IMG/VR virus record: IMGVR_UViG_3300031088_000735 | Reading direction: 5' to 3' (one strand) | Length of the DNA: 64,000 nt | From: a virus | Lineage: Duplodnaviria; Heunggongvirae; Uroviricota; Caudoviricetes | Part shown: in pieces, positions 5,711 to 57,228 of the stretch | Layout of the letters: each line of letters starts with the position of its first letter | How positions within the stretch are numbered: the stretch's first letter is position 1 | Program-made: the position numbers and the translations under genes | Notes under the pieces: generated by a model | What the model saw: the letters and a program-made list of their open reading frames with translations, nothing else | What the model was told of the DNA's origin: nothing | The model's database searches: none

Positions 5711-5845
5711 ATGCAAGGTTCCTTCGGTGATGCAAAAGAAGCTTTCCGTGGTCGCAAACAGAAAGATACTCACGCCGCAAAAGAAAACCGCGAATCCCGT
5801 CAATTCCGCGATAAACGTCGCCACCGACACCCTGACGCAGAGTAA
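5711..5845 (+). CDS. small basic MQGS-family peptide, copy 1 (44 aa)
   Basis: MQGSFGDAKEAFRGRKQKDTHAAKENRESRQFRDKRRHRHPDAE; AGGAG SD, own promoter and terminator; 3 paralogs in window. Confidence 0.85.
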   Translation: MQGSFGDAKEAFRGRKQKDTHAAKENRESRQFRDKRRHRHPDAE

Positions 5846-5896
5846 CTGTTAATACAAAAAGCCCTATGAATAGGGCTTTTTTGTTTGTTTCAATTT

Positions 5897-6523
5897 TTAA
5901 AGTGCTGTTCTACATACTTTACTTACTGTATAAGAACCATAGTTGGCAGTAAGAACACCTTTCGTGTATTTGTAGGGTGAAACCACTTTTTCAGTAGCAT
6001 CATAATCACCACCGCTGTATACCAACACGCCATTAGATGTTATGTTTAACAATCTATATGAAGGCCCACCCGCTACCCAAGTAGAGTTTGGAATGTCACA
6101 TTCTTCTTTTGACTTTGTACCTACAGCAGATCTTGTGATTGACTGATTGGTTAACGTTCTATTTTCATTTTTGACAGGGCCAACATTTCTGTAATCATGA
6201 CTGACGTTGTTTTGCTCTCTTTCTTGTACTGTTCTGGTTTGAACTTGACTACAACCTGTTGCTGTTTGTTCAAATGTTACACCTTGATCTTTTGTAGATG
6301 GATCAGGTGACCATGCACCACAACCTGTTGGAGAGCCTACATTAGTCCACTCACTGATTAAGGCATCAGATGCTAACCATTTGCTGACAAATCTTATATT
6401 GTCACCATTGATTTGTTCTTTACCGTAAACAACAGTAAAACTTGGATGTTCACTTGCTGTTGCTGTTATTGCATTTGCACTTAACAATACAAATGCCAAC
6501 AATTTTAATTTATTCTTTTTCAT
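5897..6523 (-). CDS. secreted/surface protein, paralog A
   Basis: signal peptide; aligns along most of its length with 6604-7245. Confidence 0.8.
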   Translation of the reverse strand: MKKNKLKLLAFVLLSANAITATASEHPSFTVVYGKEQINGDNIRFVSKWLASDALISEWTNVGSPTGCGAWSPDPSTKDQGVTFEQTATGCSQVQTRTVQEREQNNVSHDYRNVGPVKNENRTLTNQSITRSAVGTKSKEECDIPNSTWVAGGPSYRLLNITSNGVLVYSGGDYDATEKVVSPYKYTKGVLTANYGSYTVSKVCRTAL

Positions 6524-6603
6524 ACCTTACTCATTATTATTTTTCTATTTGTATTAATTTTAACATGCTTTTTTTTATTTGAAATACTTTAATACTAATA
6601 TAT

Positions 6604-7245
6604 TTAAATTGGTGTTCTACATACTAAGTTGAAAGTATAATAACCATAGTTTGCTGCTTGTGCCCCCTTAGTATATTTATAGCCCCCATAAGTATATTCA
6701 GTTAAATTAATATTACCAATATCTGGGAAAACTTTTGATCCGTTCCAAATGATATACATCATAGCCATTGATGGTGTTCCGTTTACCCAACGATAATTAT
6801 TGATATCACCACTACCACAGTCGTTGACTATTTTAGTACCAACCGCCGTTCTGGTCATTGAATAATCATCGAGATTTCTTGATTCGTTAGTCAAACTTCC
6901 TACATTTCGATAGGCCAATGTATAATCGTTTTGCTCTCTATTTTGTACAGTTCTTGATTGGGATTGTTTACAATTACTTGATGTTTGTTCAAAAGAAATA
7001 CCTGTTGCAATAGTGTTTGTAGCAGGAGTCCATGCCGAACATCCGGTGGCTTCACCGACATTAAACCATTCCGATATGGTTGGCGTTGTTTTTATCCATT
7101 TTCCTTTTTTTACAAAAGAAATGTTATCTCCATTGATTTGTTCTTTTCCATAAACAACAGTAAAGGTTGAATGCTCACTTGCATTTGCTGTTGCCATAGC
7201 ACTTGATATTAAAGCACCTGCCAACATTAATATTGATTTTTTCAT
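6604..7245 (-). CDS. secreted/surface protein, paralog B
   Basis: signal peptide; shared ASEH..FTVVYGKEQINGDNI and TGC.AW.P motifs. Confidence 0.8.
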   Translation of the reverse strand: MKKSILMLAGALISSAMATANASEHSTFTVVYGKEQINGDNISFVKKGKWIKTTPTISEWFNVGEATGCSAWTPATNTIATGISFEQTSSNCKQSQSRTVQNREQNDYTLAYRNVGSLTNESRNLDDYSMTRTAVGTKIVNDCGSGDINNYRWVNGTPSMAMMYIIWNGSKVFPDIGNINLTEYTYGGYKYTKGAQAANYGYYTFNLVCRTPI

Positions 7246-7539
7246 TTGTTATTTTTGTTATTATCTTAGTACAAATTTAACACGTTTTAGATAAAATCAA
7301 ATATAAAAAATTACAACTAAGGCTTAATATACAATATTTTATATTAAATTTATTAATCCACCATTAAACATAGTTTTTTATAAATTCATTTATATAATGA
7401 TTAAAAAAAATACAAATTAACCAAATTGTTAGTTTTTAAACATGTTAAAAATATTTTTTATTCTTTTTCAAAAATTCTTGGAATCATTATTATTTCGTGC
7501 TATACTCAAACCACTTTAAAACGTCAGGAGCTTTTCAAC

Positions 7540-7647
7540 ATGTGCGACAAATGTAAAGTCTGCAAGAAAGATAAACCAGAAGACGCACAAAAGCAGAATG
7601 CTGAACAGCCTGCTGGTGAATCTATGGTTATCGTTAAATCTAAATAA
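7540..7647 (+). CDS. small Cys-containing protein (35 aa)
   Basis: AGGAG SD before ATG 7540, MCDKCKVCKK; ORF-track upstream extension spans the promoter. Confidence 0.55.
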   Translation: MCDKCKVCKKDKPEDAQKQNAEQPAGESMVIVKSK

Positions 7648-7657
7648 GGACAGGATC

Positions 7658-7843
7658 ATGAAACAATTGATGAATGACGAAGAATCTCTTGATTGCCTTA
7701 TGGATGGCATGTCTCTTGATGAAGCCATTGCTTACCTGCAGTCGTTGAAAACTCGTTTCGATGGTCAACGTTGTGTCTTGTCTAATGATTGCGTTGATGA
7801 CATCACAGCCGTGACTGTCCTCAATTTGTATGCGGTTGAATGA
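7658..7843 (+). CDS. hypothetical acidic protein
   Basis: AGGA SD before ATG 7658. Confidence 0.6.
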   Translation: MKQLMNDEESLDCLMDGMSLDEAIAYLQSLKTRFDGQRCVLSNDCVDDITAVTVLNLYAVE

Positions 7844-7948
7844 CTGTAATACTATATCAAAAATAAATGACCGCTTTGGCGGTTTTTTTATTGCACGCAT
7901 GTTTAATATACTTTATAATGGAGCTACTTAATCGGAGATATATTGTAA

Positions 7949-8149
7949 ATGATCGCTTGTAGTTGTCCTAAATGTAGCACCTATGGAAATGCCTCGTATT
8001 GCGTCAATGATATCATTGATCAAGGTCGAGCGGAATACGCCGCTACCACTGGCCCAAAGCCTTTATGGCAGTCCGTTTCACTCTGGTTTGCCGGTAGTTT
8101 GTGTCTTGTCCCTATTGTCATCCGTATTGCAGATGCCATTTCGCACTAA
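7949..8149 (+). CDS. small membrane protein with CxCxxC
   Basis: GGAG SD, C-terminal TM, terminator after. Confidence 0.65.
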   Translation: MIACSCPKCSTYGNASYCVNDIIDQGRAEYAATTGPKPLWQSVSLWFAGSLCLVPIVIRIADAISH

Positions 8150-8186
8150 TTAGCAATAAAGAAAAAGGAGCCTACTGGCTCCTTTT

Positions 8187-8882
8187 TTAATGTATGTTAA
8201 TCATTGCAATTAACACTTTATCTTCTTCTGTTAAATCTTCTAGTGTCTTTATTTCATTTTCTTTCATATAATTAAAGTAATGTTTTCGTAAGTATTTTAC
8301 ACCACCCATGTATATAAACTCATCTTCTACTTTAATGCCTTTCTTTTCTATTGATTTTAATTTAAATTCGTTACTGTAATAAGCTTCATATTCCAATATT
8401 AAATCATCATAGTTATTAAATAAACACAGTTGTTTAAAATTATCTTGTTCAGTATATGTTTTTTGTATAATGGGTTTATACATGTTCTGATAACTTTTTA
8501 ATTTAAATAAAAATACTGTAGTCATTGCAATTATTACCAGACTATTCACTAAATGCTCTTTCCATTCATATGTTTTATAATTGGTTGTGTAATACATAAT
8601 TGCATAAATTAATACACCTATGGCTATATATTTAAGTGTTTCTGGCACTATTAAATTTGATACTGGATAATTATTTTTAGAATACGTTACTTTATAATGT
8701 TTAAGCAGAGCCACCATTATAAGCATCCCTATAATATCTATTGCAATATAAGTTGCCAACACTTTTTCAACAGGTGTTTTCAGTAGAAACATCATAATAG
8801 TTGTTATCAGTAAACAACAAAAAGAAACAGCTATTTTTCTTTGATACATACTCTCATTTAATGCTTTGAAATAATCTTTCAT
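8187..8882 (-). CDS. AT-rich multi-TM membrane protein
   Basis: four hydrophobic segments in 231 aa; AAGGA SD. Confidence 0.75.
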   Translation of the reverse strand: MKDYFKALNESMYQRKIAVSFCCLLITTIMMFLLKTPVEKVLATYIAIDIIGMLIMVALLKHYKVTYSKNNYPVSNLIVPETLKYIAIGVLIYAIMYYTTNYKTYEWKEHLVNSLVIIAMTTVFLFKLKSYQNMYKPIIQKTYTEQDNFKQLCLFNNYDDLILEYEAYYSNEFKLKSIEKKGIKVEDEFIYMGGVKYLRKHYFNYMKENEIKTLEDLTEEDKVLIAMINIH

Positions 8883-9004
8883 ATTATGTCCTTTTTCGTG
8901 TTAATATCATGACACCTATTTTTTATTTTTCAATTTATTTTGAGCTTTATATTTACAAATAACACTAAAATCTGTTATAATCCGCTTTCTTAGGAGATTC
9001 GACT

Positions 9005-9214
9005 ATGAAATTGTTCAAGAAAATTTTAGAAATGCTTGGCTATGCTGTTGCATTGGTGATGATCGGTTTGGTAGTCATAGCACTCTTTCTCGGAGCCGTG
9101 TTCCGAATGGAAGATTGTGTGGCTAACAATTCTACTGCCTACTGTGTTATGACACAGAAAAACTTTGTTTTTTGGGATACCGTGAACCGTTCTAAAAACC
9201 ATGATCAAATCTGA
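9005..9214 (+). CDS. small membrane protein, 3' end replaced by IS insertion
   Basis: AGGAG SD; last codons (RSKNHDQI) come from the IS right end; reconstructed original end is VNPLKKDEK-stop. Confidence 0.7.
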   Translation: MKLFKKILEMLGYAVALVMIGLVVIALFLGAVFRMEDCVANNSTAYCVMTQKNFVFWDTVNRSKNHDQI

Positions 9215-9330
9215 TCATCGTTAATTTCTTGTTTCATTAAGTGGTATAAATAAAGTTTATTTATACCATCTCTTCACAAGCTTTCACTGTTGAACTAACA
9301 GCATAATCGTATAGATTCTTCGATGCATTT
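9187..9330 (-). ncRNA. putative TnpB omega-RNA scaffold
   Basis: overlaps tnpB 3' end (AVSSTVKAC) to the right end; perfect 12-bp inverted repeat GGTATAAATAAA-G-TTTATTTATACC at 9243-9267; 5' limit is approximate. Confidence 0.55.
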
Positions 9331-10409
9331 TCATCTCTATCATGGTGAGTATTACAACTTGGACATGTCCAAGCTCTAACACTTAATCCTATTGTAGCAA
9401 ACTTATAATGACATTTTGAACATAGTTTTGTTGATGGATAAAATTTATCAGCCTTTACTATGTTTGATTCATATAACTTAGCTTTATATTGTAGTTGTCT
9501 TGAGAATTCATAAAGCCCTGCATCAAGAATAGACTTTGATAAATGTCTATTCTTGGACATAGCTTTTATATCAAGTGTTTCAATACCAATGATAGAGTAA
9601 TTATTCGTTAAAAAGTGAGTAAGTTTATGCAAATAATCTTTCCGAATATTAGCAATTCGAGAATGTAACTTAGCCAAAATAATTCTTGCTTTATAACGAT
9701 TTTTAGAACCTTTTTGTTTTCGAGACAGTTGTCTCGAAAGAACTTTGATTCTGTTTTGCAATATTCGATAAGGCTTAAGCGTTGGAGCATTCCAATGCTT
9801 AGAACCATCAAAAAAAGTTGCAAATGATTTAATGCCAAGATCTATACCAATAGCGTGATTTTTGCTATGAACAATGGATTCTTGTTCTACTTCGATAGAA
9901 AGAGAAACGAACCATTTACCTGCAGTTCTAGATAGAACAGCAGTTTTGATAGAACCATTAAAACGTAATGACTCTTTCATTTTAATAGGTTTTAACTTAG
10001 GTATTATCAAATAACGACCTTCTATTTTCAATTGGTCGTTACCAATTTCAAATGAATCATGGTGATATTTATTTTTGAATTTAGGGAATTGAGCACGTTT
10101 GGCAAAGAAATTGACAAACGCAGCACCTAAGTTTTTTATGGCTTGTTGTGGTGCGTATTTAGATACGTCATACATCCAAGGAAATTGTTGTTTTTTAATG
10201 GAATTAAGACGTTTTCGTAGTTCACCTTCGTAACGTGATGAAGAAGGTGAGACAGAACAAGCAAAAGGATATTTTTGATAAGCCTCATAATCATCTTTCC
10301 ATTGAGATAAAGCCCAATTATAAGCAAATCGTGCTGTACCAGCAGATTGGCTTAAATAAGTAAGTTGAGACTTACTGGGCTTTAATTCAATTTTATGAGA
10401 TTTGAGCAT
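9261..10409 (-). CDS. tnpB: RNA-guided endonuclease TnpB
   Basis: N-terminal HTH (GTARFAYNWAL), RuvC motifs IGIDLG / IGIETL / DRDENAS, zinc ribbon CSKC...CPSC. Confidence 0.95.
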   Translation of the reverse strand: MLKSHKIELKPSKSQLTYLSQSAGTARFAYNWALSQWKDDYEAYQKYPFACSVSPSSSRYEGELRKRLNSIKKQQFPWMYDVSKYAPQQAIKNLGAAFVNFFAKRAQFPKFKNKYHHDSFEIGNDQLKIEGRYLIIPKLKPIKMKESLRFNGSIKTAVLSRTAGKWFVSLSIEVEQESIVHSKNHAIGIDLGIKSFATFFDGSKHWNAPTLKPYRILQNRIKVLSRQLSRKQKGSKNRYKARIILAKLHSRIANIRKDYLHKLTHFLTNNYSIIGIETLDIKAMSKNRHLSKSILDAGLYEFSRQLQYKAKLYESNIVKADKFYPSTKLCSKCHYKFATIGLSVRAWTCPSCNTHHDRDENASKNLYDYAVSSTVKACEEMV

Positions 10410-10618
10410 GAATAATCCTATTTAATTGAGCAAATTATAGGATTTAAAAGAATAAAGTCAAGAGCAAAAAAAAGTAAATGATCAGGTTTGAACAGAGAAT
10501 TGATGTACAGTTAGAAACCCCTTGAAAAAAGACGAAAAATAATTAATTTTAGATTGATTTAAAAACTGGTTTTTGCTAAAATAGCTTCATCAACTCAATG
10601 ACATAAAGGATACACATC

Positions 10619-10954
10619 ATGGCCCAAGCTAAAAACCTGCCTAACCTGCCAGTCAAAAAATACGCACTGGCTCTCTGCAGCAAAAACGTATGGGGTGTTG
10701 TCACCTCCGATGAACCTAAAGAAATTGTTTTCACCGATGGCTCCAAAAGTGTTTGTCACACTGGCATTGCCTGCCGTGGCACTGTTATTGCCGGTTGGGG
10801 TGCTCTGGAAGGCACTACTGTCATCAAAAAAGAAGGTGACTTGTGGGCTTCTCGTAATCCGCACGTTGTTGCTCACTTGGGTGACATGGAAGGCTTTACA
10901 CTGGACGAAATCCTCGCATTCGCACGCCACAAACTGTCGGCTATGAACCTGTAA
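10619..10954 (+). CDS. hypothetical protein
   Basis: AAGGA SD, strongly biased codons, UUCG terminator. Confidence 0.8.
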   Translation: MAQAKNLPNLPVKKYALALCSKNVWGVVTSDEPKEIVFTDGSKSVCHTGIACRGTVIAGWGALEGTTVIKKEGDLWASRNPHVVAHLGDMEGFTLDEILAFARHKLSAMNL

Positions 10955-11052
10955 CAAGGTTTAATGTCTAACAAGGCCACCTTCGGGTGGCTTTTTTGTT
11001 TACTGCTCGTTTTTATTGTGGTATAATCCATTATCTTTTAGAGGTATTGATC

Positions 11053-11697
11053 ATGAGTCTTGCACCAGCAGAAATCAACATTAAAAATCACATTATCAAA
11101 TACCCTGATTTGTTTCAGAGTCGTATGGATGTGTTGAAATTCGTTCTTGTTCGTGATCCTGAATCTTGTTGGGGTGAAGATGGCACGGTGTATTCACGAA
11201 ATATCTCCAGAGACGATACGCCAAACGCGAAAATAAGCACAGATTATCTTGGTACTAATCCACCAGAACTGGCGGCTATTTATCAAAAGTTTGTTACACC
11301 ACAGCAAGTTTATCGAGAACTTGAATTAGCTAAATATCAGGTGATGGAAAAACACTTTGATATTTTGGTTAAAACTGGGTTGCAGACTGACAAGGGCTTT
11401 ACATCAAGTGATGTCCGCTCCATTAACGAATACTCTAAGATCTTCAAAGTTCCTGATAATGTGGAAGCCAGTTGGCTGGCTGCTGTTAGAGAGGTTTTGC
11501 AGTCTGCTATTATTGCGACCAAAGAAGAATATCTCAAACATGGGTGTGACGGCTCTCAGGTTGATCACTGGGTCTATCCGTTCATTTTTGAAACCTACCA
11601 AAAGCTGATGGCTGAACAAAAACGTTTCATGCCAAAACTTAACATTTCACCTGAAACCGCCGAAAAACTTCGTCAACTCAAAGGATTACTTGGTTAA
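11053..11697 (+). CDS. hypothetical protein
   Basis: start reassigned to ATG 11053 (GAGGT SD, TGGTATAAT promoter). Confidence 0.8.
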   Translation: MSLAPAEINIKNHIIKYPDLFQSRMDVLKFVLVRDPESCWGEDGTVYSRNISRDDTPNAKISTDYLGTNPPELAAIYQKFVTPQQVYRELELAKYQVMEKHFDILVKTGLQTDKGFTSSDVRSINEYSKIFKVPDNVEASWLAAVREVLQSAIIATKEEYLKHGCDGSQVDHWVYPFIFETYQKLMAEQKRFMPKLNISPETAEKLRQLKGLLG

Positions 11698-11761
11698 AAA
11701 GCTTGCTCAAAAACAAGGTTTATTGTATAATGGCTCTACACAAACAGTCAGGACAATTATC

Positions 11762-12037
11762 ATGATTACTGCAGCCTACTTGAAACGTCCAGTGGTCAAC
11801 ATGAAAATTCGCCAAGCCGTGGTAGAAGCCAAAGCTGCAGCTATTGATACAGATGGTCATGGGCGTGCTTACATCACTGACTATGAGGATAATAACATCA
11901 TGCGTCTGGATGTATTCATGCCGGGTAATCATGACCTGTTCCCACAAGGTGGTGTCATCGTCTACGGTGCAGAATCCAAACAAATTACCGATTTGGTTGA
12001 ATCTTCCATTGATTGTAAGTTGGTGGATCTGATTTAA
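11762..12037 (+). CDS. hypothetical protein
   Basis: start reassigned after AGGA SD and promoter. Confidence 0.7.
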   Translation: MITAAYLKRPVVNMKIRQAVVEAKAAAIDTDGHGRAYITDYEDNNIMRLDVFMPGNHDLFPQGGVIVYGAESKQITDLVESSIDCKLVDLI

Positions 12038-12198
12038 CTCATAGTTTCATTTTTTAACTAAAAGAGCCTTCATGGCTCTTTTTTATTGTCCTTTTTTTTA
12101 TAAAAAAAAAATGGTTAAATCAAAAAATAATATCACCAATTATTTGATTAATTGTTTATTTAAGTTATATTTTTTATGTATTTAATATTAGGTGATTA

Positions 12199-12810: not shown

Positions 12811-12839
12811 CTGTATTTGTGGAGTCTTAAAGTTAATTA

Positions 12840-12867
12840 TTGACAAAAAACTCATTTTTGATATAAT
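12840..12867 (+). promoter_or_regulatory. sigma70-type promoter
   Basis: TTGACA-AAAAACTCATTTTTGA-TATAAT. Confidence 0.85.
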
Positions 12868-12896
12868 TGAGCCACTACTTAATGAGGTAATCTTTC

Positions 12897-23376: not shown

Positions 23377-23556
23377 ATGGCTGGCTATATTCATGATGAC
23401 ATCAAAGAAATTATGGAAGACGCTGCAGATTCTGTTCATCCGACATTGCCTTCGACTAAAGGATGGACAGAAGAACAGTTGAAGTCTTTGGATGTGATGA
23501 TGCAATTCGCATGGAATCGTGGTTACAAATCGGCTTCGCAAGATTTAAATGAATAA
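23377..23556 (+). CDS. hypothetical protein (59 aa, not in ORF track)
   Basis: AGGA SD, CCCATC promoter; MAGYIHDDIKEIMEDAADS... Confidence 0.65.
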   Translation: MAGYIHDDIKEIMEDAADSVHPTLPSTKGWTEEQLKSLDVMMQFAWNRGYKSASQDLNE

Positions 23557-25498: not shown

Positions 25499-25676
25499 GC
25501 GGTTGATGTTAAGAAGGGGGCCAATCGGCCCTTTTTTTATTTCTGCTTAAATATCAATAGTATACAGTGATTTATTTTGATGTTTTCAGTAAAAAAGATG
25601 AAAATAATGCTTTACACCGATGTTCTTTTTCCCTATAATGAACCCATCAAAACGAAACAACACAAGGAAATACGAA

Positions 25677-25808
25677 ATGCAAGGTTCTCACCGCGACATG
25701 ATGGAAAAGTTTGCAGGTAAGCAGAAAGACAACTCCAAACGTAGCGAAAACAAAGCTAGCCGTCAAAACCGTGATCAACGTCGCAATCGTCACCCGGACG
25801 CAGAATAA
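25677..25808 (+). CDS. small basic MQGS-family peptide, copy 2 (43 aa)
   Basis: MQGSHRDMMEKFAGKQKDNSKRSENKASRQNRDQRRNRHPDAE; AAGGA SD; 9 nt before tRNA-Arg. Confidence 0.85.
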   Translation: MQGSHRDMMEKFAGKQKDNSKRSENKASRQNRDQRRNRHPDAE

Positions 25809-25817: not shown

Positions 25818-25894
25818 CCGTGCGTAGCTCAGTTGGATAGAGCATCCGCCTTCTAAGCGGATGGTCGCAGGTTCGAATCCTGCCGCATGGGCCA
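25818..25894 (+). tRNA. trnR: tRNA-Arg(TCT)
   Basis: cloverleaf, anticodon loop CTTCTAA, GGTTCGAATCC, CCA. Confidence 0.95.
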
Positions 25895-26521: not shown

Positions 26522-26606
26522 GCCCGAGTGGTGAAATTGGTAGACGCGGGGGACTTAAAATCCCCTTCCTTACGGAGTGCCGGTTCGAGTCCGGCCTCGG
26601 GCACCA
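26522..26606 (+). tRNA. trnL: tRNA-Leu(TAA) copy 1
   Basis: cloverleaf, loop CTTAAAA, CCA; own promoter at ~26462-26492. Confidence 0.95.
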
Positions 26607-26645: not shown

Positions 26646-26677
26646 GTGCCAGAGGTGAGCCAATAATGCAGCACTAA
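26646..26677 (+). other. minigene 1 (SD + ATG CAG CAC TAA, MQH)
   Basis: GTGCCA-GAGGTGA-7 nt-ATG at 26666. Confidence 0.7.
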
Positions 26678-26746
26678 GACTTAATTAATTCTATAATTGA
26701 ATCTAGTATAATGAATCCGAAATGACTTTAATTCTAATTAGATGAA

Positions 26747-26778
26747 GTGCCAGAGGTGAGCTACCCATGCCGCATTAA
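26747..26778 (+). other. minigene 2 (SD + ATG CCG CAT TAA, MPH)
   Basis: GTGCCA-GAGGTGA-7 nt-ATG at 26767. Confidence 0.7.
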
Positions 26779-27698: not shown

Positions 27699-27768
27699 GT
27701 TGTTGACGTAAAAAGACTTTCTTGTTATACTTCTCCCATCAAAACGAAACAACAAAAGGATACAAAAC

Positions 27769-27897
27769 ATGCAAGGCTCTTACCGCGACACGATGGAAAA
27801 GTTCCCTAGCAAATCTAAGGACACTGTAAAACGTGGCGAAAACAAAGCTTCCCGCAACATGCGTGACCAACGTCGCAATCGTCACTCGGACGAATAA
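27769..27897 (+). CDS. small basic MQGS-family peptide, copy 3 (42 aa, not in ORF track)
   Basis: MQGSYRDTMEKFPSKSKDTVKRGENKASRNMRDQRRNRHSDE; AAGGA SD; 9 nt before tRNA-Leu. Confidence 0.85.
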   Translation: MQGSYRDTMEKFPSKSKDTVKRGENKASRNMRDQRRNRHSDE

Positions 27898-27906: not shown

Positions 27907-27991
27907 GCCCGGTTGGTGAAATTGGTAGACGCGGGGGACTTAAAATCCCCTTCCTTACGGAGTGCCGGTTCGAGTCCGGCACCGGGCACCA
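27907..27991 (+). tRNA. trnL: tRNA-Leu(TAA) copy 2
   Basis: cloverleaf; matches copy 1 apart from compensatory acceptor-stem changes. Confidence 0.95.
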
Positions 27992-28031: not shown

Positions 28032-28063
28032 GTGCCAGAGGTGAGCCAATAATGCAGCACTAA
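28032..28063 (+). other. minigene 3 (SD + ATG CAG CAC TAA, MQH)
   Basis: same sequence as minigene 1; ATG at 28052. Confidence 0.7.
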
Positions 28064-28138
28064 GACTTAATTAATCCTATAATTGAATCTAGTATATAGT
28101 TTATGAATACCGATTAATGTGAAATACTCTTATAATAA

Positions 28139-28170
28139 GTGCCCGAGGTGAACTACCGATGCAGCTATAA
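28139..28170 (+). other. minigene 4 (SD + ATG CAG CTA TAA, MQL)
   Basis: GTGCCC-GAGGTGA-7 nt-ATG at 28159. Confidence 0.7.
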
Positions 28171-28205: not shown

Positions 28206-28233
28206 AAAAACCCCGTTGAAGCGGGGTTTTTTG
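28206..28233 (+). terminator. intrinsic terminator closing tRNA-Leu/minigene unit 2
   Basis: AAAAACCCCGTTGAAGCGGGGTTTTTT. Confidence 0.85.
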
Positions 28234-39833: not shown

Positions 39834-40301
39834 ATGATCGCAAAACGTTATACTATTTTCAACAAGCACATCGGTGGTAGTAACCGCCTCCCACAAGGCT
39901 TTCATGGCCTAAATCGCTTGCATTCAACCAAGGCTAAAATGTCGCCAGAAGCCCAAGCTTTGTTTGCAGAGTGGGAAAAATCGGAAACCGAAGTGGTTCT
40001 GATGGGTGGTAATGACGAACAGCTTGAAGCCCTTGCAGCCGCATTGGCTAACATCACTGAGCTGCCTTCGGCTAAGTTCAACGAAGCGGATCTGCGTGAT
40101 AGCTGCACTGTTGTGACGTTTGTCGCCACTGATCGCATTGTAGCAGGTGGCAATGAACTTCGTGGCATGAATGTGAAGCCTTATGAAGCCGAAGATTTCT
40201 TGGCTAAAAACACTGTCCGTATGCCGGAAGGCCGCGTTCAGTTGACGCCAGATGAAATCTTTGTTGTTGCCAACATTGCTTACCTTCGCCTTGCCGACTA
40301 A
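39834..40301 (+). CDS. peptidyl-tRNA hydrolase (Pth2)-like protein
   Basis: PQGFH, W...ETEVVLMGG..EQL..L, LP.AKFNEADL...CTVVTFV pattern recalled from phage Pth2-like proteins. Confidence 0.55.
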   Translation: MIAKRYTIFNKHIGGSNRLPQGFHGLNRLHSTKAKMSPEAQALFAEWEKSETEVVLMGGNDEQLEALAAALANITELPSAKFNEADLRDSCTVVTFVATDRIVAGGNELRGMNVKPYEAEDFLAKNTVRMPEGRVQLTPDEIFVVANIAYLRLAD

Positions 40302-42537: not shown

Positions 42538-42657
42538 TCTTTAGTATTTGATGACTCGAAGCCCAACCCAGTGTTGGGTTTTTTATGCATTAAAAATGAT
42601 ATTGTTTATTTTCTTTCGGTATGATACTATTGCACAAATTATATGAGGCTTCAAAAA

Positions 42658-43212
42658 ATGAACAAAGCAGTAACCGAAAAAAGTAAATACATCTCCTATG
42701 TCTTGCGTCATGGTGCAAAAGAAGTGGGGATCGCCATTGATAGCCAAGGCTGGGTGCTTGTGGCTGACTTGATGGCCGTCGCCAAACGCGACAAGAAATC
42801 TTTCACCCGTGAAGAACTCGACTTCATTGTTGAAAACAACAACAAAAAACGTTTCGCCTTCTCCGAAGATGGCTTGTCTATCCGTGCCAGCCAAGGCCAT
42901 TCCAATGAAAGCATTGAGATTGCCTTCCAACCTGTTGAACCACCAGAATCGCTGTTCCACGGCACCACAGTGGACTTTGTAGATCTTATCATGAAGGAAG
43001 GTCTGAGCAAGATGAAACGTCATCATGTCCACCTCTCTCAGAGTCTTGAAACCGCTGTTAGCGTTGGTAGTCGTCATGGTAAGGTCGCTATGCTCAAAGT
43101 CAACTCTGCTCAAATGCAGCGTGATGGGTTCAGCTTCTACTGCTCAGCTAACAACGTCTGGTTGACGGATAATGTCCCGGCTCGCTATATCGAGATTGTG
43201 CCTATCAAGTAA
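42658..43212 (+). CDS. kptA: RNA 2'-phosphotransferase (KptA/Tpt1)
   Basis: SYVLRH, KKRF, IRASQGHS, LFHGT, RHHVHLS, NNVWLT motifs. Confidence 0.95.
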   Translation: MNKAVTEKSKYISYVLRHGAKEVGIAIDSQGWVLVADLMAVAKRDKKSFTREELDFIVENNNKKRFAFSEDGLSIRASQGHSNESIEIAFQPVEPPESLFHGTTVDFVDLIMKEGLSKMKRHHVHLSQSLETAVSVGSRHGKVAMLKVNSAQMQRDGFSFYCSANNVWLTDNVPARYIEIVPIK

Positions 43213-49242: not shown

Positions 49243-49249
49243 TTATTGT

Positions 49250-49281: not shown

Positions 49282-49311
49282 ATTCTGTTTTATTGTTAGA
49301 GGTCTTTTGTT

Positions 49312-50346: not shown

Positions 50347-50369
50347 AACTTATTTTCGATGAATAGCGA

Positions 50370-50401
50370 TTGCTAGTGTAATGGGCAACTGTTATACTAG
50401 C
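50370..50401 (+). promoter_or_regulatory. palindromic promoter/operator A2
   Basis: TTGCTA-17-TATACT embedded in GCTAGTGTAA-N10-TTATACTAGC. Confidence 0.65.
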
Positions 50402-50426
50402 CTTCTAATCAATGGAGATCTCATTA

Positions 50427-50891
50427 ATGGGCAACTTCTCGTTTATTTCACAAAACAACAAAGAACCGCTGCTGAATCCGTGGCATGAACGCACCTTGTG
50501 CGAACTGCAGTTGATTTCGGATGGTAAGCTGGTTGAAATCATGCGTGGTGTCTACACCGGCTATGGGGCGGTTGATGTGGAAGATACCTTTCAACACGTC
50601 CTGTTGGTTGATGGTGTCTGGACGGATATCACTGAACAAACCAAGTCGAAAGCAACCAGTTGCGATGGTGATTACTGGGTGACCAAAACATGGGATGAGA
50701 TTAATGATACGTTCTATGATAGCTCAGTGAATGGAATTGCGGCTTGGCATCTCGCCTCAATGACCACCAGTGTTCCCCATGCCACTGAAAAAAGTGAAAT
50801 GGATATGAATCAAGGTGATCTCCATAATAACAATGAACCGGATGATGATTGGGATGAAGATGGAGAATATGAACGAAATAACTGGCTTTAA
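50427..50891 (+). CDS. hypothetical protein, acidic tail
   Basis: GGAG SD before ATG 50427. Confidence 0.75.
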   Translation: MGNFSFISQNNKEPLLNPWHERTLCELQLISDGKLVEIMRGVYTGYGAVDVEDTFQHVLLVDGVWTDITEQTKSKATSCDGDYWVTKTWDEINDTFYDSSVNGIAAWHLASMTTSVPHATEKSEMDMNQGDLHNNNEPDDDWDEDGEYERNNWL

Positions 50892-50963
50892 TTAAGTTTT
50901 AGTTTTTTCATTGTGGAAGCTTTCCATGTGTGCTATGATAAAGCATCACATCGGAGAGCTTTC

Positions 50964-51320
50964 ATGCATAATAAAATAACTCCTTTCCAGCTTGTCTCTT
51001 CAATCAAGAATTTTGGTGGATCTGACGCCAAGTTCAACGCCACCTTGGAACCCGCTTCTAAACGAGGATTTCAAGAATTTTCCAAAAAAAATCTCCATGA
51101 TATTGATGATTGCGTTCGGGAAGAAGCTGTTCTCAATTTCCTTCTTGACCGATTGTCCACCCTTCCAGAAGGATACTCACTGGTCATCGGTGGCAAAGAA
51201 AAAGCCATCTTTGAAATTGCCTTCAAAAAATTCCGTGACCGTATGGTGACTGTCGATGGTTGTGATATTGCTGTCTATGATAATGCTTATCAACAAATTC
51301 TAATGTTGATCAGTGAATAA
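50964..51320 (+). CDS. hypothetical protein
   Basis: GGAG SD before ATG 50964. Confidence 0.7.
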   Translation: MHNKITPFQLVSSIKNFGGSDAKFNATLEPASKRGFQEFSKKNLHDIDDCVREEAVLNFLLDRLSTLPEGYSLVIGGKEKAIFEIAFKKFRDRMVTVDGCDIAVYDNAYQQILMLISE

Positions 51321-51414
51321 TCATAAAATAAAGACATATTTATTGTGGTTTTTATTGCTGCAGTTTGATTAACTTGGTATAATGATTTCATCAAAACGAA
51401 CCGAGATAATCAGC

Positions 51415-51798
51415 ATGAATATTCAAGAAGCCATTCAAGCCATCAGCGAACTGTTCCCAAATCGCTATGTCAAAATCGTGGAATACACCAGCATCGGTGC
51501 ATCTTGCATTCAAGTGGAGTTTGCTAACGGCGATTCGTCAACGGCTCCTAACAACTACATCATGAACCACAATGCCCATATGCGTTTTTTCTGTTCGGCT
51601 GTTGATGCAAGCATTAAAGGTTCTGAAGCCCTTAATCATCCGCAAGATATGGAACGCATTGTTTCCCATTACAAATTGCGTGATGCAGGCTTGAAATACC
51701 GTAAAATCAAAGGCAAAAACGCTGGTGATGCTTTGGCTAAACTGGTTAAGTGGTTTGCGGCTAACCAAGCCGTGATCCTGAACGCTTCGGAACTCTAA
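51415..51798 (+). CDS. hypothetical protein
   Basis: start after CATCAAAACG promoter. Confidence 0.75.
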   Translation: MNIQEAIQAISELFPNRYVKIVEYTSIGASCIQVEFANGDSSTAPNNYIMNHNAHMRFFCSAVDASIKGSEALNHPQDMERIVSHYKLRDAGLKYRKIKGKNAGDALAKLVKWFAANQAVILNASEL

Positions 51799-51909
51799 CC
51801 TTTCAAGTTTTTAAAAAGCCCTCTTGTGAGGGTTTTTTGTTAACAACCTGTTGACCATAAAACTCATTTTTGATATAATTATCACATCAACCGACAATGA
51901 GGCTACACC

Positions 51910-52188
51910 ATGTCCCGTTATACGCTCAAACTGTTGAAAGAAGATCTGAAAGCTGTTAATGCCAAACTGGCCGGTTCTGGTTACTATCTGGTGGCTCAAA
52001 GCCGTAATGGTTACACCGTTGTTGATGAGTACAAAGGTGACATCAGCGAAGGTCATAGTGGCATTTGCGTCAACAACCTGCAGTGTGGTTCTCCCCGCGA
52101 CTGTATCGAAGCGGCTTACCACTACGAACCACGCGAAAACATCAAGAGCCTGAACGGCACTCAGAAAAGCCCTTTTGGCCCGATGTAA
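51910..52188 (+). CDS. hypothetical protein
   Basis: GAGG SD, promoter, terminator. Confidence 0.75.
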   Translation: MSRYTLKLLKEDLKAVNAKLAGSGYYLVAQSRNGYTVVDEYKGDISEGHSGICVNNLQCGSPRDCIEAAYHYEPRENIKSLNGTQKSPFGPM

Positions 52189-52299
52189 GTGGATTTCACT
52201 CAATAAAAAAGGGGCTTCGGCCTCTTTTTTGTTTACATAAAAACTCGTTTTTGCTATAATATCTTCATCAAATCATTCAGCTAGCACAGGCGATATTCG

Positions 52300-52770
52300 A
52301 TGAACGTTATCAAAAAGAACTTTTACCATATTCTGTTTTTTGTTGTCGGGGTTGTTCTTATCGCCTACGCTTTTAAGCTTTACGCTTTCGGTGTAGATTA
52401 CGAAACCAATGTCACTCACTCGGTTATGTTGGTGGACACTGCAAGCACAACCACCAAAGTCAAGCAAAACATTCATTACAACACTACTGGCTATTTTATC
52501 GAAAATTCAACAGGTAAAAAATTTCAAGCTCCTATTCAAGATAAGCTTTATCGTGAGTTTGAAGCCGGTGGTGATAAACCGATTGCGATGGAAAAGAATC
52601 TTAGCCAGTCGGAAATTAACCAAAGTGGTCGCGGCTTTTTAGCTTTCATTTTTAGCGTAATTTTCGTCCTTGTTGGCTCCATTTCTGTTCTTTGTGTAGC
52701 TCACAGTAAATTCAAGGAATACAAATTGAAAATCCAATATTTCTTTAAATATGGCAACCAAAACGAATAA
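52300..52770 (+). CDS. membrane protein (TM - beta domain - TM)
   Basis: two hydrophobic segments. Confidence 0.75.
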   Translation: MNVIKKNFYHILFFVVGVVLIAYAFKLYAFGVDYETNVTHSVMLVDTASTTTKVKQNIHYNTTGYFIENSTGKKFQAPIQDKLYREFEAGGDKPIAMEKNLSQSEINQSGRGFLAFIFSVIFVLVGSISVLCVAHSKFKEYKLKIQYFFKYGNQNE

Positions 52771-52807
52771 GGCTTGCAGTAGCCTGTCCATTTTGCTACA
52801 ATAACAC

Positions 52808-52860
52808 CATCGAAGCGGCAAGGGGCGAGCATCCAAATAAGCCTTTCCCCTTGTATCTGC
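52808..52860 (+). ncRNA. conserved structured 5' leader, copy 1
   Basis: CATCGAA-GCGG-CAAGGGG-CGAGC-loop-GCCTTT-CCCCTTG-TAT-CTGC directly after a -10 box. Confidence 0.7.
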
Positions 52861-52878
52861 CAACTTGGAAGTTATCTC

Positions 52879-53604
52879 ATGACTAATTATACAGAAGAAG
52901 AAAGAGAAATATCTCCTGCAGTTGGTCTTAAAGATTACTTTGTTCAAAAATTTACCAATCTTCAATTTGATTATGGTTTAACAACTTTGGGCATTTGCCG
53001 ATATCCGTTAGATTCTAAAGGTAATCGAATTGTTGAAACTCTTGAATATTGTCCACATACATTTGGTTTAGACGGCGGTTCCGCTGATAAATCTGAAACT
53101 ATCGTTCAAATAACCCACTACAAGTGTGACACTCCTAATTCAGTTTATTTTATATTAAATCCTGAGATTATTGATGTTTATTCAAATCATTTCGACTTGG
53201 ATTGTGAGAATATTAGTTCTTTTGTAAATAGAATCAAACAGCATATGGAATTGATTAATAAAGTGAGTCCTGCAGATGACTTTAAATCAGTTAACTGTGC
53301 TCAATTCAATGTTTTTTTCAATTTTAAATATGACCACACTGTTAAAAAGATCTTTCGAATTGCAAACATTGCTTTTTATCCAATTTCAGGTCATGATAAA
53401 AGGGTTGTGTTCACTGCGACCCATAACACATTACAAACCATGTCTAGCTTGCGAAAAATGGATATTGAATTTTTTAACCGCTACTATAAGCATAAAATAC
53501 AGGAAGCCATGCCAGATCTTGGCTTCGACAAAGTTTATGACCTGATTAACCTTGATAATTGGTCAGAATCTTTAAAATCACTTGTTAAAATGAGCTATTA
53601 TTGA
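52879..53604 (+). CDS. AT-rich hypothetical protein
   Basis: 241 aa ORF downstream of leader copy 1. Confidence 0.75.
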   Translation: MTNYTEEEREISPAVGLKDYFVQKFTNLQFDYGLTTLGICRYPLDSKGNRIVETLEYCPHTFGLDGGSADKSETIVQITHYKCDTPNSVYFILNPEIIDVYSNHFDLDCENISSFVNRIKQHMELINKVSPADDFKSVNCAQFNVFFNFKYDHTVKKIFRIANIAFYPISGHDKRVVFTATHNTLQTMSSLRKMDIEFFNRYYKHKIQEAMPDLGFDKVYDLINLDNWSESLKSLVKMSYY

Positions 53605-53661
53605 TATAATTGCCTCACAAACGAAGACTATAAAAGCCCGAACAAGCCAGAGGACAAATAA

Positions 53662-54060
53662 ATGAATCGAATTCAAAAGTTTAACCGTGCCCTGTTGAAA
53701 GCCATTGCTGCAAAAAAAATCGTTGTTGCTGACCGTAACAGTGGGGCAATCCGTGAAGCTATCGTAAAATTCAGCTTTTCTCATGATGGTCAAACTCACT
53801 TTTTCGCCCTGTCGTCGGAGCGGACTGCTCCCGGTCTGGAACTGTTGGGCTACGACGCCCCACCAAAACTGACTCTGGTGGCTTACAATGCTTCCTTTAC
53901 CAGTGGCACCCATGAAGACCTGCCAGAAGGCGTTGACGCTTCGGCCATCAAATACATCGAATCTTACTCGGTTATCTCCGAAGAAGACGCGGTAAAGGCT
54001 CGTGAAGTGTTGGCGGAAGCCTTTAACCGCTTCAATGTCGAAATGTGCCTGCCACACTAA
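53662..54060 (+). CDS. hypothetical protein
   Basis: GAGGA SD, terminator. Confidence 0.8.
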   Translation: MNRIQKFNRALLKAIAAKKIVVADRNSGAIREAIVKFSFSHDGQTHFFALSSERTAPGLELLGYDAPPKLTLVAYNASFTSGTHEDLPEGVDASAIKYIESYSVISEEDAVKAREVLAEAFNRFNVEMCLPH

Positions 54061-54081
54061 AACTGTATACCGTTTAATACT

Positions 54082-54101
54082 GGGGCTTCGGCCCCTTTTT
54101 T
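54082..54101 (+). terminator. intrinsic terminator
   Basis: GGGGC-TTCG-GCCCC + T run. Confidence 0.9.
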
Positions 54102-54182
54102 GTTTTCTTTGAAATAGTGGTTGTTTCAAAAACTCATTTTTGTTATACTTTTCTTATCGAAACCAGTTTAGGCGACATTAAA

Positions 54183-54557
54183 ATGCTCTTGTTGAACATG
54201 CTAGTCAAGCATATGGAAAATAATGCAGTTATCATCAACTCATTAGAATCCTATTCGAATTGGTTTTCTGCTGATTCAAGCAATGTATCCCATGTCAAGG
54301 TGGGTGAAACCTTGGAGCGTCTTTCCTATGCTGATGTCAGCGTTCTTGAACAAATCATCAGTGTTAATGGCAAAGCTCGTTTTGAGAAAAAAGACGATAT
54401 CGATGGTTCAATTGAAACCCGCGTATTGATTTGGTTTATGTTCAAATTCGAACAAGACGGTCGCCAGATTAAAGTCAGTAATCTTTCGCTGGGCACGTCT
54501 TTTATGGCTAGTAGCATGACCGCCGCACGCCGAATTATTCGAGAAAATTACAGATAA
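54183..54557 (+). CDS. hypothetical protein
   Basis: start reassigned to ATG 54183. Confidence 0.65.
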   Translation: MLLLNMLVKHMENNAVIINSLESYSNWFSADSSNVSHVKVGETLERLSYADVSVLEQIISVNGKARFEKKDDIDGSIETRVLIWFMFKFEQDGRQIKVSNLSLGTSFMASSMTAARRIIRENYR

Positions 54558-54560
54558 TTC

Positions 54561-54604
54561 TTGCTCGAAAAACTCATTTTTGGTATACTTATCCCATCAA
54601 AACG
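54561..54604 (+). promoter_or_regulatory. sigma70-type promoter with conserved spacer and +1 motif
   Basis: TTGCTC-GAAAAACTCATTTTTGG-TATACT-TAT-CCCATCAAAACG. Confidence 0.8.
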
Positions 54605-54626
54605 AGATAAAACAGGAAATCTCAAC

Positions 54627-54890
54627 ATGGCTAAGCTTATCCTCACCGCCCTCGAACAAGCCGTAATGTCCAACATGAACGCTTTCGGGGCTAGCCAAGT
54701 TATCCCTCAAAAAATGATTGCTAATGGCACTGCTGCTATCAAAAGCACGCAAGTGAGTGCTGTTATCAACAACATGATCGGCAAAGGTCTTGTAACCCGT
54801 CAAACCGACTTGTTTGGCACTAACGTTGCCTTTACTCGCTCGGGTAAAATCCAAAGCACCAAACTGATGAAATCCCGTTTGGCCGCTTAA
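54627..54890 (+). CDS. winged-helix protein, paralog 3 (short)
   Basis: LTALEQAV..N...QVSAVINNMIGKGLV. Confidence 0.6.
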   Translation: MAKLILTALEQAVMSNMNAFGASQVIPQKMIANGTAAIKSTQVSAVINNMIGKGLVTRQTDLFGTNVAFTRSGKIQSTKLMKSRLAA

Positions 54891-54914
54891 TCAATTTCGT
54901 TTGGAGGTTTGTCC

Positions 54915-55190
54915 ATGAAAGTTATCATTGCTGGCAATGTTACTCACGAAATTAAAGTGACCCGTATCAAGCCAAAACTCTGGGGTGTTCGTTGTTTTAC
55001 CAATGGCATACTTAATCAAGAAATTCAAGTTCAATGCAAAGCGGATGTTGGCGTTGCAGCGGCTGAAATGCTTCGTCTTGAAGATAAGTGCGGCAATCAC
55101 TCCGATCAAGCATCGGCAAGCCGTGAACGCTTCAACAAAGGCCCAAAATGGCGGGCTTACCAACGGCCATCGAAAACAATTAAGGTTTAA
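54915..55190 (+). CDS. hypothetical protein
   Basis: GGAGG SD. Confidence 0.75.
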   Translation: MKVIIAGNVTHEIKVTRIKPKLWGVRCFTNGILNQEIQVQCKADVGVAAAEMLRLEDKCGNHSDQASASRERFNKGPKWRAYQRPSKTIKV

Positions 55191-55235
55191 TTCAAAATCC
55201 CTTGTTTTTGATTGAGTATTTTAGTATAATTAACC

Positions 55236-55288
55236 CATCGAAGCGGCAAGGGGCGAGCATTCAAGTAAGCCTTTCCCCTTGTTTCTGC
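55236..55288 (+). ncRNA. conserved structured 5' leader, copy 2
   Basis: TATAAT at 55225 then CATCGAAGCGGCAAGGGGCGAGC...GCCTTTCCCCTTGTTTCTGC. Confidence 0.7.
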
Positions 55289-55317
55289 ACTCTTAATATC
55301 AGCGAATGGATTGACTC

Positions 55318-55866
55318 ATGACTAATCAAAAGAAAGACACTCCAAGTCAGTTCCGTAAGCGGTTTAAAGATTATCGCGGGCATTATGTTCGTGTGGTCGA
55401 TGTTGACTTACAACAAATTGAAAAACTCATTTCCAATCATTATGTCGCAATGGGCCTTAGCTGGAATGAGGTGGACATTGCTGTTGATTTCTTCAACAAG
55501 CAACTCAAATCGTTCATTTACAAAAATATGAGCGAAAACCACCATCAGCGAGCTTCTATCAAGTCTCTGGACTTCTGGATCTACTATGTTCCAAACGGTT
55601 CAGGTAAAGCCGTTGTGTCGGTTCAATCCGAAAGCATCAAAGACTTCCTGAAACCAGCTCTCTACTATGCTGGCATGGCTTACCAAGAATATGGGGATGA
55701 TCAAGAGGCTGTATTGAAATTGGCTACTGACAGCTTTGACAGGAGCCATGCAGACGCAGCAAAATTTGCTGACGCTGAACGCCTTCATGATGAAAACGAA
55801 GCCCTGAAACGTCGTGTGGCGTGGCTTGAAAAACAGTTGTGCGGCATTGATTTCAAAGAAATTTGA
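55318..55866 (+). CDS. hypothetical protein, C-terminal coiled coil
   Basis: 182 aa ORF downstream of leader copy 2. Confidence 0.75.
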   Translation: MTNQKKDTPSQFRKRFKDYRGHYVRVVDVDLQQIEKLISNHYVAMGLSWNEVDIAVDFFNKQLKSFIYKNMSENHHQRASIKSLDFWIYYVPNGSGKAVVSVQSESIKDFLKPALYYAGMAYQEYGDDQEAVLKLATDSFDRSHADAAKFADAERLHDENEALKRRVAWLEKQLCGIDFKEI

Positions 55867-55938
55867 AATAATGCTTGCCTATAAATCTGTTTTTTGGTAA
55901 ACTTATCCCATCAAAACAGAAACCGAAAGGGATACATC

Positions 55939-56403
55939 ATGGAAAGCATCATCAAGTTCGAAGAAGGCAAAACCTACGCTACTCCTTCGATTTGTGACTC
56001 ATCCTATATGGTGACTGCGACTGTTATCAAACGCACCGCTAAACGTGTCACTTTCACCATGAAAGGTGAAAGCAAACCTATCACCAAAGGTATTGGCATC
56101 TACGAGGGGAAAGAATTCTTCTATCCTAACGGTCAATACAGCATGTGTGCCATTTTGCGTGCGGATGATGTCGTTGACAGCGTAGAAGCATCGTCAGCCC
56201 CTGTTACTGCCCCTATCGAATCGAAAGTGTTGTTCGAGAATGGCGAAACGCTGGCTGACCTGTTTGAAGAAGGTAAAGAGCTTTTCACGCAAGAACAAAT
56301 CGACGGCATCAAAACCGCTTTGGCTGGCCTCTTGTTTGGTGAAGCTTGCATACCTGAACGACCAACCGCCAAAATCTACAACCTTGCAGACTACCGCCGT
56401 TAA
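55939..56403 (+). CDS. hypothetical protein
   Basis: AGGGA SD before ATG 55939; biased codons. Confidence 0.75.
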   Translation: MESIIKFEEGKTYATPSICDSSYMVTATVIKRTAKRVTFTMKGESKPITKGIGIYEGKEFFYPNGQYSMCAILRADDVVDSVEASSAPVTAPIESKVLFENGETLADLFEEGKELFTQEQIDGIKTALAGLLFGEACIPERPTAKIYNLADYRR

Positions 56404-56487
56404 TTCGGTGGTTTTCTTTTTAAAAATATTGTTTTTGTTTGGGTGTTTTGTTATAATCACTCTACCAACTCGATAAAGGTTAACGCC

Positions 56488-56919
56488 ATGAGCAATTATC
56501 CTGACAACACTGAAACTGACACTAAACTTTTTCAGATTCGTTTTCATAATGTCTATATGGGTGATGTATGGGCAGAAGATGCATCTGCTGCCCTTGCGAA
56601 AGCACAGGAACTTTACCCAGATGTTCCTAAACACCTTTTCGAAATGAAGTTTTCAGGGAATCTTTATCCAGTGAAAAAATTGACCATCAAGGACATTTGC
56701 ACAGTTCTTGATGAACGCAACGTTCTTTATCATGCTCCTATTGGTGATGAATGCCAGTTGATTCTTTCGAGCAGTTCCGACATCATCGAAGGTGGCTATG
56801 GTAATGGTGATGACCGTTGGGATCTCTATGTGCGAGCCACCAAAACCAAGCCAAGCCAGTTGTTTGTTTTCAAAGATCTGGCTGAATTGTCGGTTCTCCT
56901 TGATGCTGTTCAAGCTTAA
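56488..56919 (+). CDS. hypothetical protein
   Basis: AAGGT SD before ATG 56488; terminator. Confidence 0.75.
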   Translation: MSNYPDNTETDTKLFQIRFHNVYMGDVWAEDASAALAKAQELYPDVPKHLFEMKFSGNLYPVKKLTIKDICTVLDERNVLYHAPIGDECQLILSSSSDIIEGGYGNGDDRWDLYVRATKTKPSQLFVFKDLAELSVLLDAVQA

Positions 56920-57093
56920 TCGCTGTCGGCTTAACAACCCTTATTAATAATGACCCGCTTCGGCGGGTTTTTTGATCGATTATTTTTCTATTCATGATGT
57001 TTTTTTTAAATAAATGTTGTTTTGGTTGTTCTTCTTTGGTATACTTATCCCATCAAAACGAAACAACACAATCAAACAGTTAGGAGATACAAC

Positions 57094-57228
57094 ATGCAAG
57101 GTTCTTTCGGTGACGCAACTGAACGCTTCCGTGGTGGTAAGAAAAAAGACAATGAGCAATCCAAATTCAACAAAAAAGATCAGGATTTCCGTAAACGCCG
57201 TCGCAACCGTCATCAAGACTCTGAATAA
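57094..57228 (+). CDS. small basic MQGS-family peptide, copy 4 (44 aa)
   Basis: MQGSFGDATERFRGGKKKDNEQSKFNKKDQDFRKRRRNRHQDSE; AGGAG SD; own promoter and terminator. Confidence 0.85.
   Translation: MQGSFGDATERFRGGKKKDNEQSKFNKKDQDFRKRRRNRHQDSE

Follow-up and report, generated by a model that had tools for sequence, protein, structure and literature searches.

Arginine-rich-motif helices bind RNA in the N proteins of lambda and P22 and in Nun of HK022, and the internal proteins IPI-IPIII of T4 are basic, paralogous, early and separately promoted, one of them being encoded beside a transfer RNA (tRNA) cluster. Ribosome rescue factors of the ArfA/BrfA type are basic, mutually unrelated proteins of 40-70 amino acids, which place a basic C-terminal tail and a Lys-His pair on U534 of 16S ribosomal RNA (rRNA) (PMC6881298, PMC8012679). 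Early ribosome binding by phage proteins is also established, the multi-domain gp014 of phiKZ clamping 5S rRNA (PMC10914614). Here, we describe four paralogous genes for small basic peptides in a 64,000-nucleotide (nt) stretch of the Caudoviricetes record IMGVR_UViG_3300031088_000735 (the whole stretch is called the window). We show that they are real protein genes of an uncatalogued family, and tentatively propose that their product binds the ribosome.

A family of small basic peptides

The four open reading frames (ORFs) of a preliminary description of this DNA are all present where it had placed them (Table 1), and each has the MQGS-type start, the Phe at position 12 and the Arg-rich C-terminal end that had been reported. 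The peptides share 45-73% pairwise identity (copies 2 and 3, 73%), find each other by tblastn at E values of 1e-8 to 1e-17, and contain 12-14 Lys+Arg and 7-8 Asp+Glu each; tblastn found no fifth copy in the window. For copy 2, gene callers place the start wrongly at 25620 (62 amino acids).

Selection acts on the peptide, and the ORF is a real protein gene. Across 35 distinct coding sequences, the proportion of non-synonymous differences (pN) was below that of synonymous ones (pS) in 595 of 595 pairs, and two gene pairs encode identical peptides while differing by 10 and 13 synonymous changes. Seven disjoint close pairs together held 45.8 synonymous versus 12.2 non-synonymous differences, giving a pooled ratio of non-synonymous to synonymous rates (dN/dS) of 0.054 (p=3e-24), far below the value near 1 that had been named as speaking against a peptide. 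Among the window paralogs themselves, dN/dS was 0.21-0.36, with dS near saturation. The claim of a real, tRNA-linked peptide conserved at the protein level is supported.

The family set, consisting of database search members plus loci, comprised 101 distinct peptides; the database sequences fell into 47 clusters at 90% identity and 33 at 50%. Members are 41-46 amino acids long, have a net charge of +4 to +9, and come from elements with a guanine-cytosine (GC) content of 23-39%. M1 and R36 are invariant; Q2, G3, S4, E10, R33 and R39 each reach at least 96% (E10 in 98 of 101), H40 94%, F12 93%, and K16, D7 and D19 about 90%, and an Arg/Lys-His pair lies near the C-terminus in 95 of the 101 members. 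The middle is variable in sequence and constant in length to within one residue; taken with the unchanging ends, this pattern hints at a rigid bridge that spans two sites. No fused form turned up when long proteins were searched; representative matches had 41-74 amino acids, and the longer entries inspected were upstream mis-starts.

This family is uncatalogued, although small basic helical RNA binders as such are a known kind. The match to a characterised family that the preliminary description had regarded as the other adverse outcome was found neither in Pfam and NCBIfam (42 members, E<=1), PHROGs or PADLOC, nor in the PDB (profile search, E<=10), nor among 50,697 phage records (tblastn, blastn), and 72,556 plasmid records (tblastn) gave no match either, the low-complexity filter possibly lowering sensitivity in both record sets. 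The ESM Atlas returned unnamed clusters only (at 0.77), no such ORF precedes the tRNA-Arg of PA5oct, which has similar tRNAs, and literature searches gave nothing relevant on the peptide family or on megabase phage-like elements.

AlphaFold2, run with 48 sequences, predicts a helix at residues 5-13, a Gly/Lys linker and a helix at residues 20-37 (mean predicted local distance difference test score, pLDDT, 77.5; predicted template modelling score, pTM, 0.40), with residues 21-40 being the best-predicted stretch (pLDDT 90-93). Positions 26, 29, 30, 33, 36, 37 and 40 fall within 120 degrees of one face of the basic helix, and this basic face suggests a nucleic acid target. The isolated model contains helices only and no beta-strand; a strand might form only on the ribosome. 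Because the model has no hydrophobic core, the peptide probably folds on its target. Fold searches gave generic helices only (best Z 3.6), BFVD gave no match, and the predicted complex with E. coli RF2 scored 0.01, which speaks neither for nor against binding.

The reported strong codon bias was confirmed: AGA/AGG account for 0 of 29 Arg codons in the four copies versus 149 of 708 (21%) in other window ORFs (p=0.002). Arg is encoded by CGT/CGC in the copies, Phe, Asn, His and Asp favour C-ending codons, and all 35 family genes compared have CAA as their second codon. AGA avoidance largely holds in relatives of 30-35% GC whose neighbouring genes use AGA for 38-50% of Arg. The peptide codons match those of highly expressed gammaproteobacterial genes. 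Leu is nearly missing from the family (0.4%), being absent from 85 of 101 members versus 0 of 84 other small proteins of a 290-kb relative (G001). This scarcity of Leu and AGA might point to independence from the adjoining tRNAs, a weak lead since the peptide is hydrophilic, its family members share ancestry, and AGA is also missing from many other genes of high codon bias.

Genomic setting of the peptide genes

Table 1. Positions of the peptide genes and associated features in the window
Feature	Position	Strand	Remarks
Copy 1 promoter	5628-5656	+	sigma70-type TTTACA-17-TATAAT, then +1 box of the element; sequence and box census
Peptide copy 1	5711-5845	+	44 amino acids, monocistronic, ATG to TAA
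Intrinsic-terminator-like hairpin with T run	5856-5882	+	after copy 1; read from sequence
Copy 2 promoter	25611-25639	+	11/12 consensus
Peptide copy 2	25677-25808	+	43 amino acids, ATG to TAA
tRNA-Arg(UCU)	25818-25894	+	ARAGORN, Rfam; 9 nt after copy 2
tRNA-Leu(UAA)	26522-26606	+	own promoter, no peptide gene before it
Two three-codon minigenes, extended Shine-Dalgarno	26648-26778	+	ATG at 26666 and 26767
Copy 3 promoter	27703-27731	+	10/12 consensus, extended TG
Peptide copy 3	27769-27897	+	42 amino acids, ATG to TAA
tRNA-Leu(UAA)	27907-27991	+	ARAGORN, Rfam; 9 nt after copy 3
Two three-codon minigenes, extended Shine-Dalgarno	28034-28170	+	ATG at 28052 and 28159; same predicted transcript as copy 3
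Terminator	28206-28231	+	ends the copy 3 / tRNA-Leu / minigene unit
Copy 4 promoter	57017-57045	+	TTGTTT-17-TATACT, extended TG; sequence and box census
Peptide copy 4	57094-57228	+	44 amino acids, monocistronic, ATG to TAA
Intrinsic-terminator-like hairpin	57243-57269	+	after copy 4; read from sequence

Each of the four copies has its own sigma70-type promoter, and the window peptide is probably made in abundance. Of the near-identical leaders noted earlier, the shared -10 and box stand, but they are mostly a general feature, the part peculiar to the four paralogs being only the next ~8 nt. The -10 plus CCCATC[AG]A box occurs at 14 sites on the + strand and at 0 on the - strand of the window, and 10 of the 14 precede genes unrelated to the peptide. 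Given these strand counts, the leader box is largely the general promoter signature of the element, and the shared leader does not speak for a regulon specific to the peptide; in distant relatives the peptide persists and the +1 box does not. The strong Shine-Dalgarno sequence claimed for all copies holds for copies 1 and 4 (-6.8 and -7.3 kcal/mol), whereas those of copies 2 and 3 are moderate (-5.4 kcal/mol). The use of several strong promoters together with optimal codons points to a target that is abundant.

Copies 2 and 3 do stop 9 nt before tRNA-Arg and tRNA-Leu (stops at 25808 and 27897), and no terminator was found between either copy and its tRNA. The 9-nt gap is not special, as it is also the tRNA-to-tRNA spacer in three cases in the 290-kb relative, and peptide-to-tRNA gaps across the family are 7-32 nt, once 65 nt. 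This relative has six peptide copies and 37 tRNA genes, including 10 Leu-UAA, 6 CAU and 4 Arg-UCU. A tRNA lies within 40 nt of four of the six peptide copies versus two of the ~426 other + strand genes (six of ~432 in all), an enrichment (p=2e-7) in which duplicate copies are not independent. Genomic context was available for 38 distinct peptides, of which 14, on several branches, lie within 65 nt of a tRNA or tRNA-like gene; in about four of ten cases, the peptide gene is thus the leading gene of a tRNA operon. A single clade holds eight of these 14, window copies 2 and 3 among them, and the linkage of these two copies is one evolutionary event, not two. Since the other six are scattered among unlinked copies, the linkage seems to be old or recurrent, on a tree that is weak (44 columns).

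Two further tRNAs of the 290-kb relative have the anticodon CUA (amber-reading; labelled Pyl by ARAGORN). tRNA-like genes with a malformed anticodon loop lie directly behind peptide genes elsewhere (L009, 10134-10210; L013, 10194-10264; L045, about 5536-5625), at gaps of 7, 22 and about 57 nt.

The minigenes consist of a GAGGTGA extended Shine-Dalgarno, 7 nt, a start codon, 0-4 codons (mostly Gln first) and a stop, and are conserved in relatives (L006, L024, L033, L034, L042, L066), one with GTG replacing ATG. No terminator was found before 28206 in the unit of copy 3, tRNA-Leu and minigenes. In a distant relative (~40% identical), the peptide gene is directly followed by the same type of minigene and then by tRNA-Arg(UCU); in the window this type trails tRNA-Leu. 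Most minigenes begin with Met-Gln, as the peptide does.

Additional RNA-repair and translation genes of the window are a KptA/Tpt1 RNA 2'-phosphotransferase (42643-43212, E 7.5e-52) and a weak Pth2-like gene (39834-40301, E 0.22). A 59-amino-acid ORF (23377-23556) without Pfam match stands before a tRNA-Leu(CAA) unit, a position conserved in the 290-kb relative; its Trp-x-x-Gly-Tyr motif recalls ribosome modulation factor. A TROVE/Ro60 gene starts 470 nt after a distant family member in L043 (8001-10221), and the gap holds a separately promoted stretch without Rfam match, a candidate Y-RNA-like RNA. The reverse strand of the 290-kb relative encodes small, strongly basic ORFs unrelated to the family at 133182-133307 (41 amino acids), 9467-9637 (56) and 260483-260662 (59), the first of which looks ArfA-like by eye and has no PF03889 match.

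Some 130 short genes, most of them unknown, fill the window, and for the larger part each is flanked by a promoter and terminator of its own; among them are genes for KptA, thymidine kinases (best phage matches to jumbo phages of gammaproteobacteria) and an Srd/HNH-like protein. Records of the protein called over copy 2 come from contigs of 1.28 and 1.86 Mb, and relatives occur on contigs of 1.54, 1.84, 1.85 and 1.92 Mb, several clustering at 1.84-1.92 Mb, which to our knowledge is well above the largest phage genomes. The element is phage-like, and may be a phage, a megaplasmid or another type. The T4-type capsid family PF07068 (Gp23) was not found in four fragments and one metagenome-assembled genome (MAG), where no positive control matched either, and the RF-1 and ArfA families were not found in the four fragments. 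The sole match among GTDB species genomes is DJWL01000096.1, a 46.5-kb contig with two peptide copies in the Flavobacteriaceae MAG UBA6231. Because its neighbouring genes match the element, it is a piece of the same type of DNA and not a host gene; its binning may reflect mis-binning or a host link. The peptide cleanly marks a set of phage-like elements that are yet to be characterised and have contigs up to 1.8-1.9 Mb, and these megabase contigs may matter more than the peptide itself.

Possible functions of the peptide

Among the four functions first offered (tRNA chaperone, antiterminator, ribosome factor and anti-defence inhibitor), a role in translation best fits the context, and the company of tRNAs and minigenes suggests such a role. 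We lean, without firm confidence, towards a ribosome-binding translation factor made at high dosage. The element would make a stand-alone two-part microprotein in large amounts via the host RNA polymerase, and this would act on the host ribosome within a translation-support module that includes the extra tRNA-Leu(UAA) and tRNA-Arg(UCU) and the ribosome-engaging minigenes. The basic face and the Arg-His tip would grip rRNA, probably in a channel or groove of the small subunit, while the F/D/E face of helix 1, along with the invariant residues at the start, might dock on a second site about 30 angstrom off, and several promoters would give enough peptide to match an abundant target. The likely effect would be to keep ribosomes working for, or redirect them to, element genes when host tRNA pools are limiting or damaged.

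Several points weigh against ribosome binding, which we propose from sequence and context. The peptide has no sequence similarity to any ribosomal or rescue protein, a basic helix suits DNA or acidic proteins as well as rRNA, and the C-terminal pair is Arg-His, not Lys-His, with His substituted in 6 of 101 members. Optimal codons and missing AGA are common to many other window genes. Besides, the same residues are kept in the roughly six in ten copies that do not lie beside a tRNA, the weak tree places eight of the 14 linked peptides in one clade, and the linkage may merely reflect a common need for strong transcription.

The peptide could also bind tRNA or pre-tRNA as a chaperone, maturation aid or anticodon-nuclease shield co-transcribed with its ligand, which we consider unlikely. 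Such a role would accord with the operon linkage at 7-32 nt to tRNA-Arg(UCU), tRNA-Leu(UAA) and odd tRNA-like RNAs, with the parallel amplification of peptide and tRNA genes, and with the proposal that phage tRNAs counter host tRNA depletion (PMC10264068). However, 33 of the 37 tRNA genes of the 290-kb relative have no peptide gene directly before them, and peptides do not group by the kind of tRNA that comes after them: copies 2 and 3 are 73% identical yet precede Arg and Leu tRNAs, respectively. It is equally unlikely that the peptide stoichiometrically inhibits a host protein (defence nuclease, toxin, RNase or RNA polymerase subunit), with the invariant N-terminus as docking motif and the tRNA linkage reflecting a common counter-defence purpose. 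Anti-defence proteins are usually patchy and fast-evolving, unlike this family, which keeps its ends across elements of 23-39% GC and has no PADLOC or other match, while the invariant free N-terminus, the amphipathic first helix, the multi-copy dosage and the location among ~130 small, separately promoted accessory genes all speak for inhibition. By analogy, the peptide might be a ribosome-rescue or mRNA-channel factor that evolved independently of ArfA, BrfA and ArfT, the first one on a mobile element, which seems quite unlikely; its Arg-His-tipped helix would then enter stalled host ribosomes, and the peptide would work alongside the spare tRNA-Leu/Arg genes and minigenes in surviving host tRNA destruction.

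A DNA-binding or virion-internal peptide, whose first ten residues would form a capsid-targeting tag cut after Glu10, is improbable. Such a tag would explain E10 (in 98 of 101 members) and why the residue two positions earlier is small or hydrophobic, but F12, K16 and D19 past the putative cut are equally conserved, neither this tag nor a T4-type one occurs in any other of the ~484 called proteins of the 290-kb relative, and the fragments searched showed no T4-type capsid gene, although no positive control matched either. Antitermination is the worst fit of the four functions first offered, because copies 1 and 4, like many neighbours, are units of promoter, gene and terminator that leave little to antiterminate. 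A lambda N-like arginine-rich-motif protein binding a hairpin in element transcripts is decidedly improbable, even with an Arg-rich helix of the right size and a +1 box, common to many promoters, that could be its site: distant relatives keep the peptide without the box, Pfam gave no match, and N has NusA- and polymerase-binding parts for which the peptide is too short. Finally, it is extremely improbable that the ORF acts in cis, as a leader peptide regulating the tRNA behind it, or that its conservation is at the RNA level. This would suit the runs of Arg codons just upstream of the tRNA-Arg gene and the constant CAA second codon, but it is largely refuted by dN/dS. In addition, peptides remain identical despite 10-13 synonymous changes, copies followed by a terminator only keep the same residues, and Arg is encoded by CGN and not by AGA, which the tRNA reads.

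Translation take-over by phages is understudied, and few phage ribosome-binding proteins are known (PMC10914614). Should the peptide prove to bind at the decoding site or in the mRNA channel, it would add a new factor for rescue or modulation and offer a starting point for ribosome-targeting peptides; rescue factors of this sort are predicted not to be findable by homology (PMC8012679). A synthesisable 43-residue peptide with clear invariant residues is a cheap probe.

Comparison with known systems

The peptide resembles ArfA, BrfA and ArfT in its similar size, its basic and lineage-restricted character, and a basic C-terminal part ending in a basic-His pair, and BrfA likewise has an N-terminal helix. 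On the other hand, the pair is Lys-His in those factors and Arg-His, at 39-40, in most members of the family. Unlike ArfA/BrfA, the peptide is multi-copy and located on a mobile element, lacks a predicted beta-strand of the kind joining the RF2 sheet, and has in each copy a stop codon before the terminator or tRNA instead of a non-stop mRNA controlled by transfer-messenger RNA (tmRNA). PF03889 (ArfA) matched none of 42 members at E<=1, and hhalign to E. coli ArfA residues 1-50 gave a probability of 0.5%. Since there is no homology, the stop codons are normal and no strand is predicted, we do not file the peptide as an ArfA/BrfA member and treat the likeness as analogy only. Likeness to the SmpB tail did not show in hhalign against the last 40 residues of E. 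coli SmpB (probability 0.1%), and bS22, bTHX, SRA, RMF and bL34 showed no homology in Pfam, NCBIfam and PDB chains. Sliding-clamp motifs were dropped, as position 5 varies (F, Y, H, N). E. coli Tpr, encoded by a protamine-like ORF in the tyrT tRNA operon, was weighed as a possible analogue in architecture.

Like N and Nun, the peptide has a single Arg-rich helix, probably folded on binding, but this helix is C-terminal, the protein is under half the size, with an invariant N-terminal motif and without known hairpin site, and no homology to the N/Nun families was found in Pfam, NCBIfam or PHROG. The T4 internal proteins IPI-IPIII are likewise basic, paralogous, separately promoted and near tRNA genes, with Glu at position 10; the tag sequence of the peptide differs, however, and is not shared with other proteins, and the peptide is half the size or less. 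A T4-type capsid-targeting tag shared between proteins was sought in the 290-kb relative fragment, where no other called protein carries it. With phiKZ gp014 the peptide has no similarity, but it shares the proposed target, a presumed early role and a very large phage-like genome.

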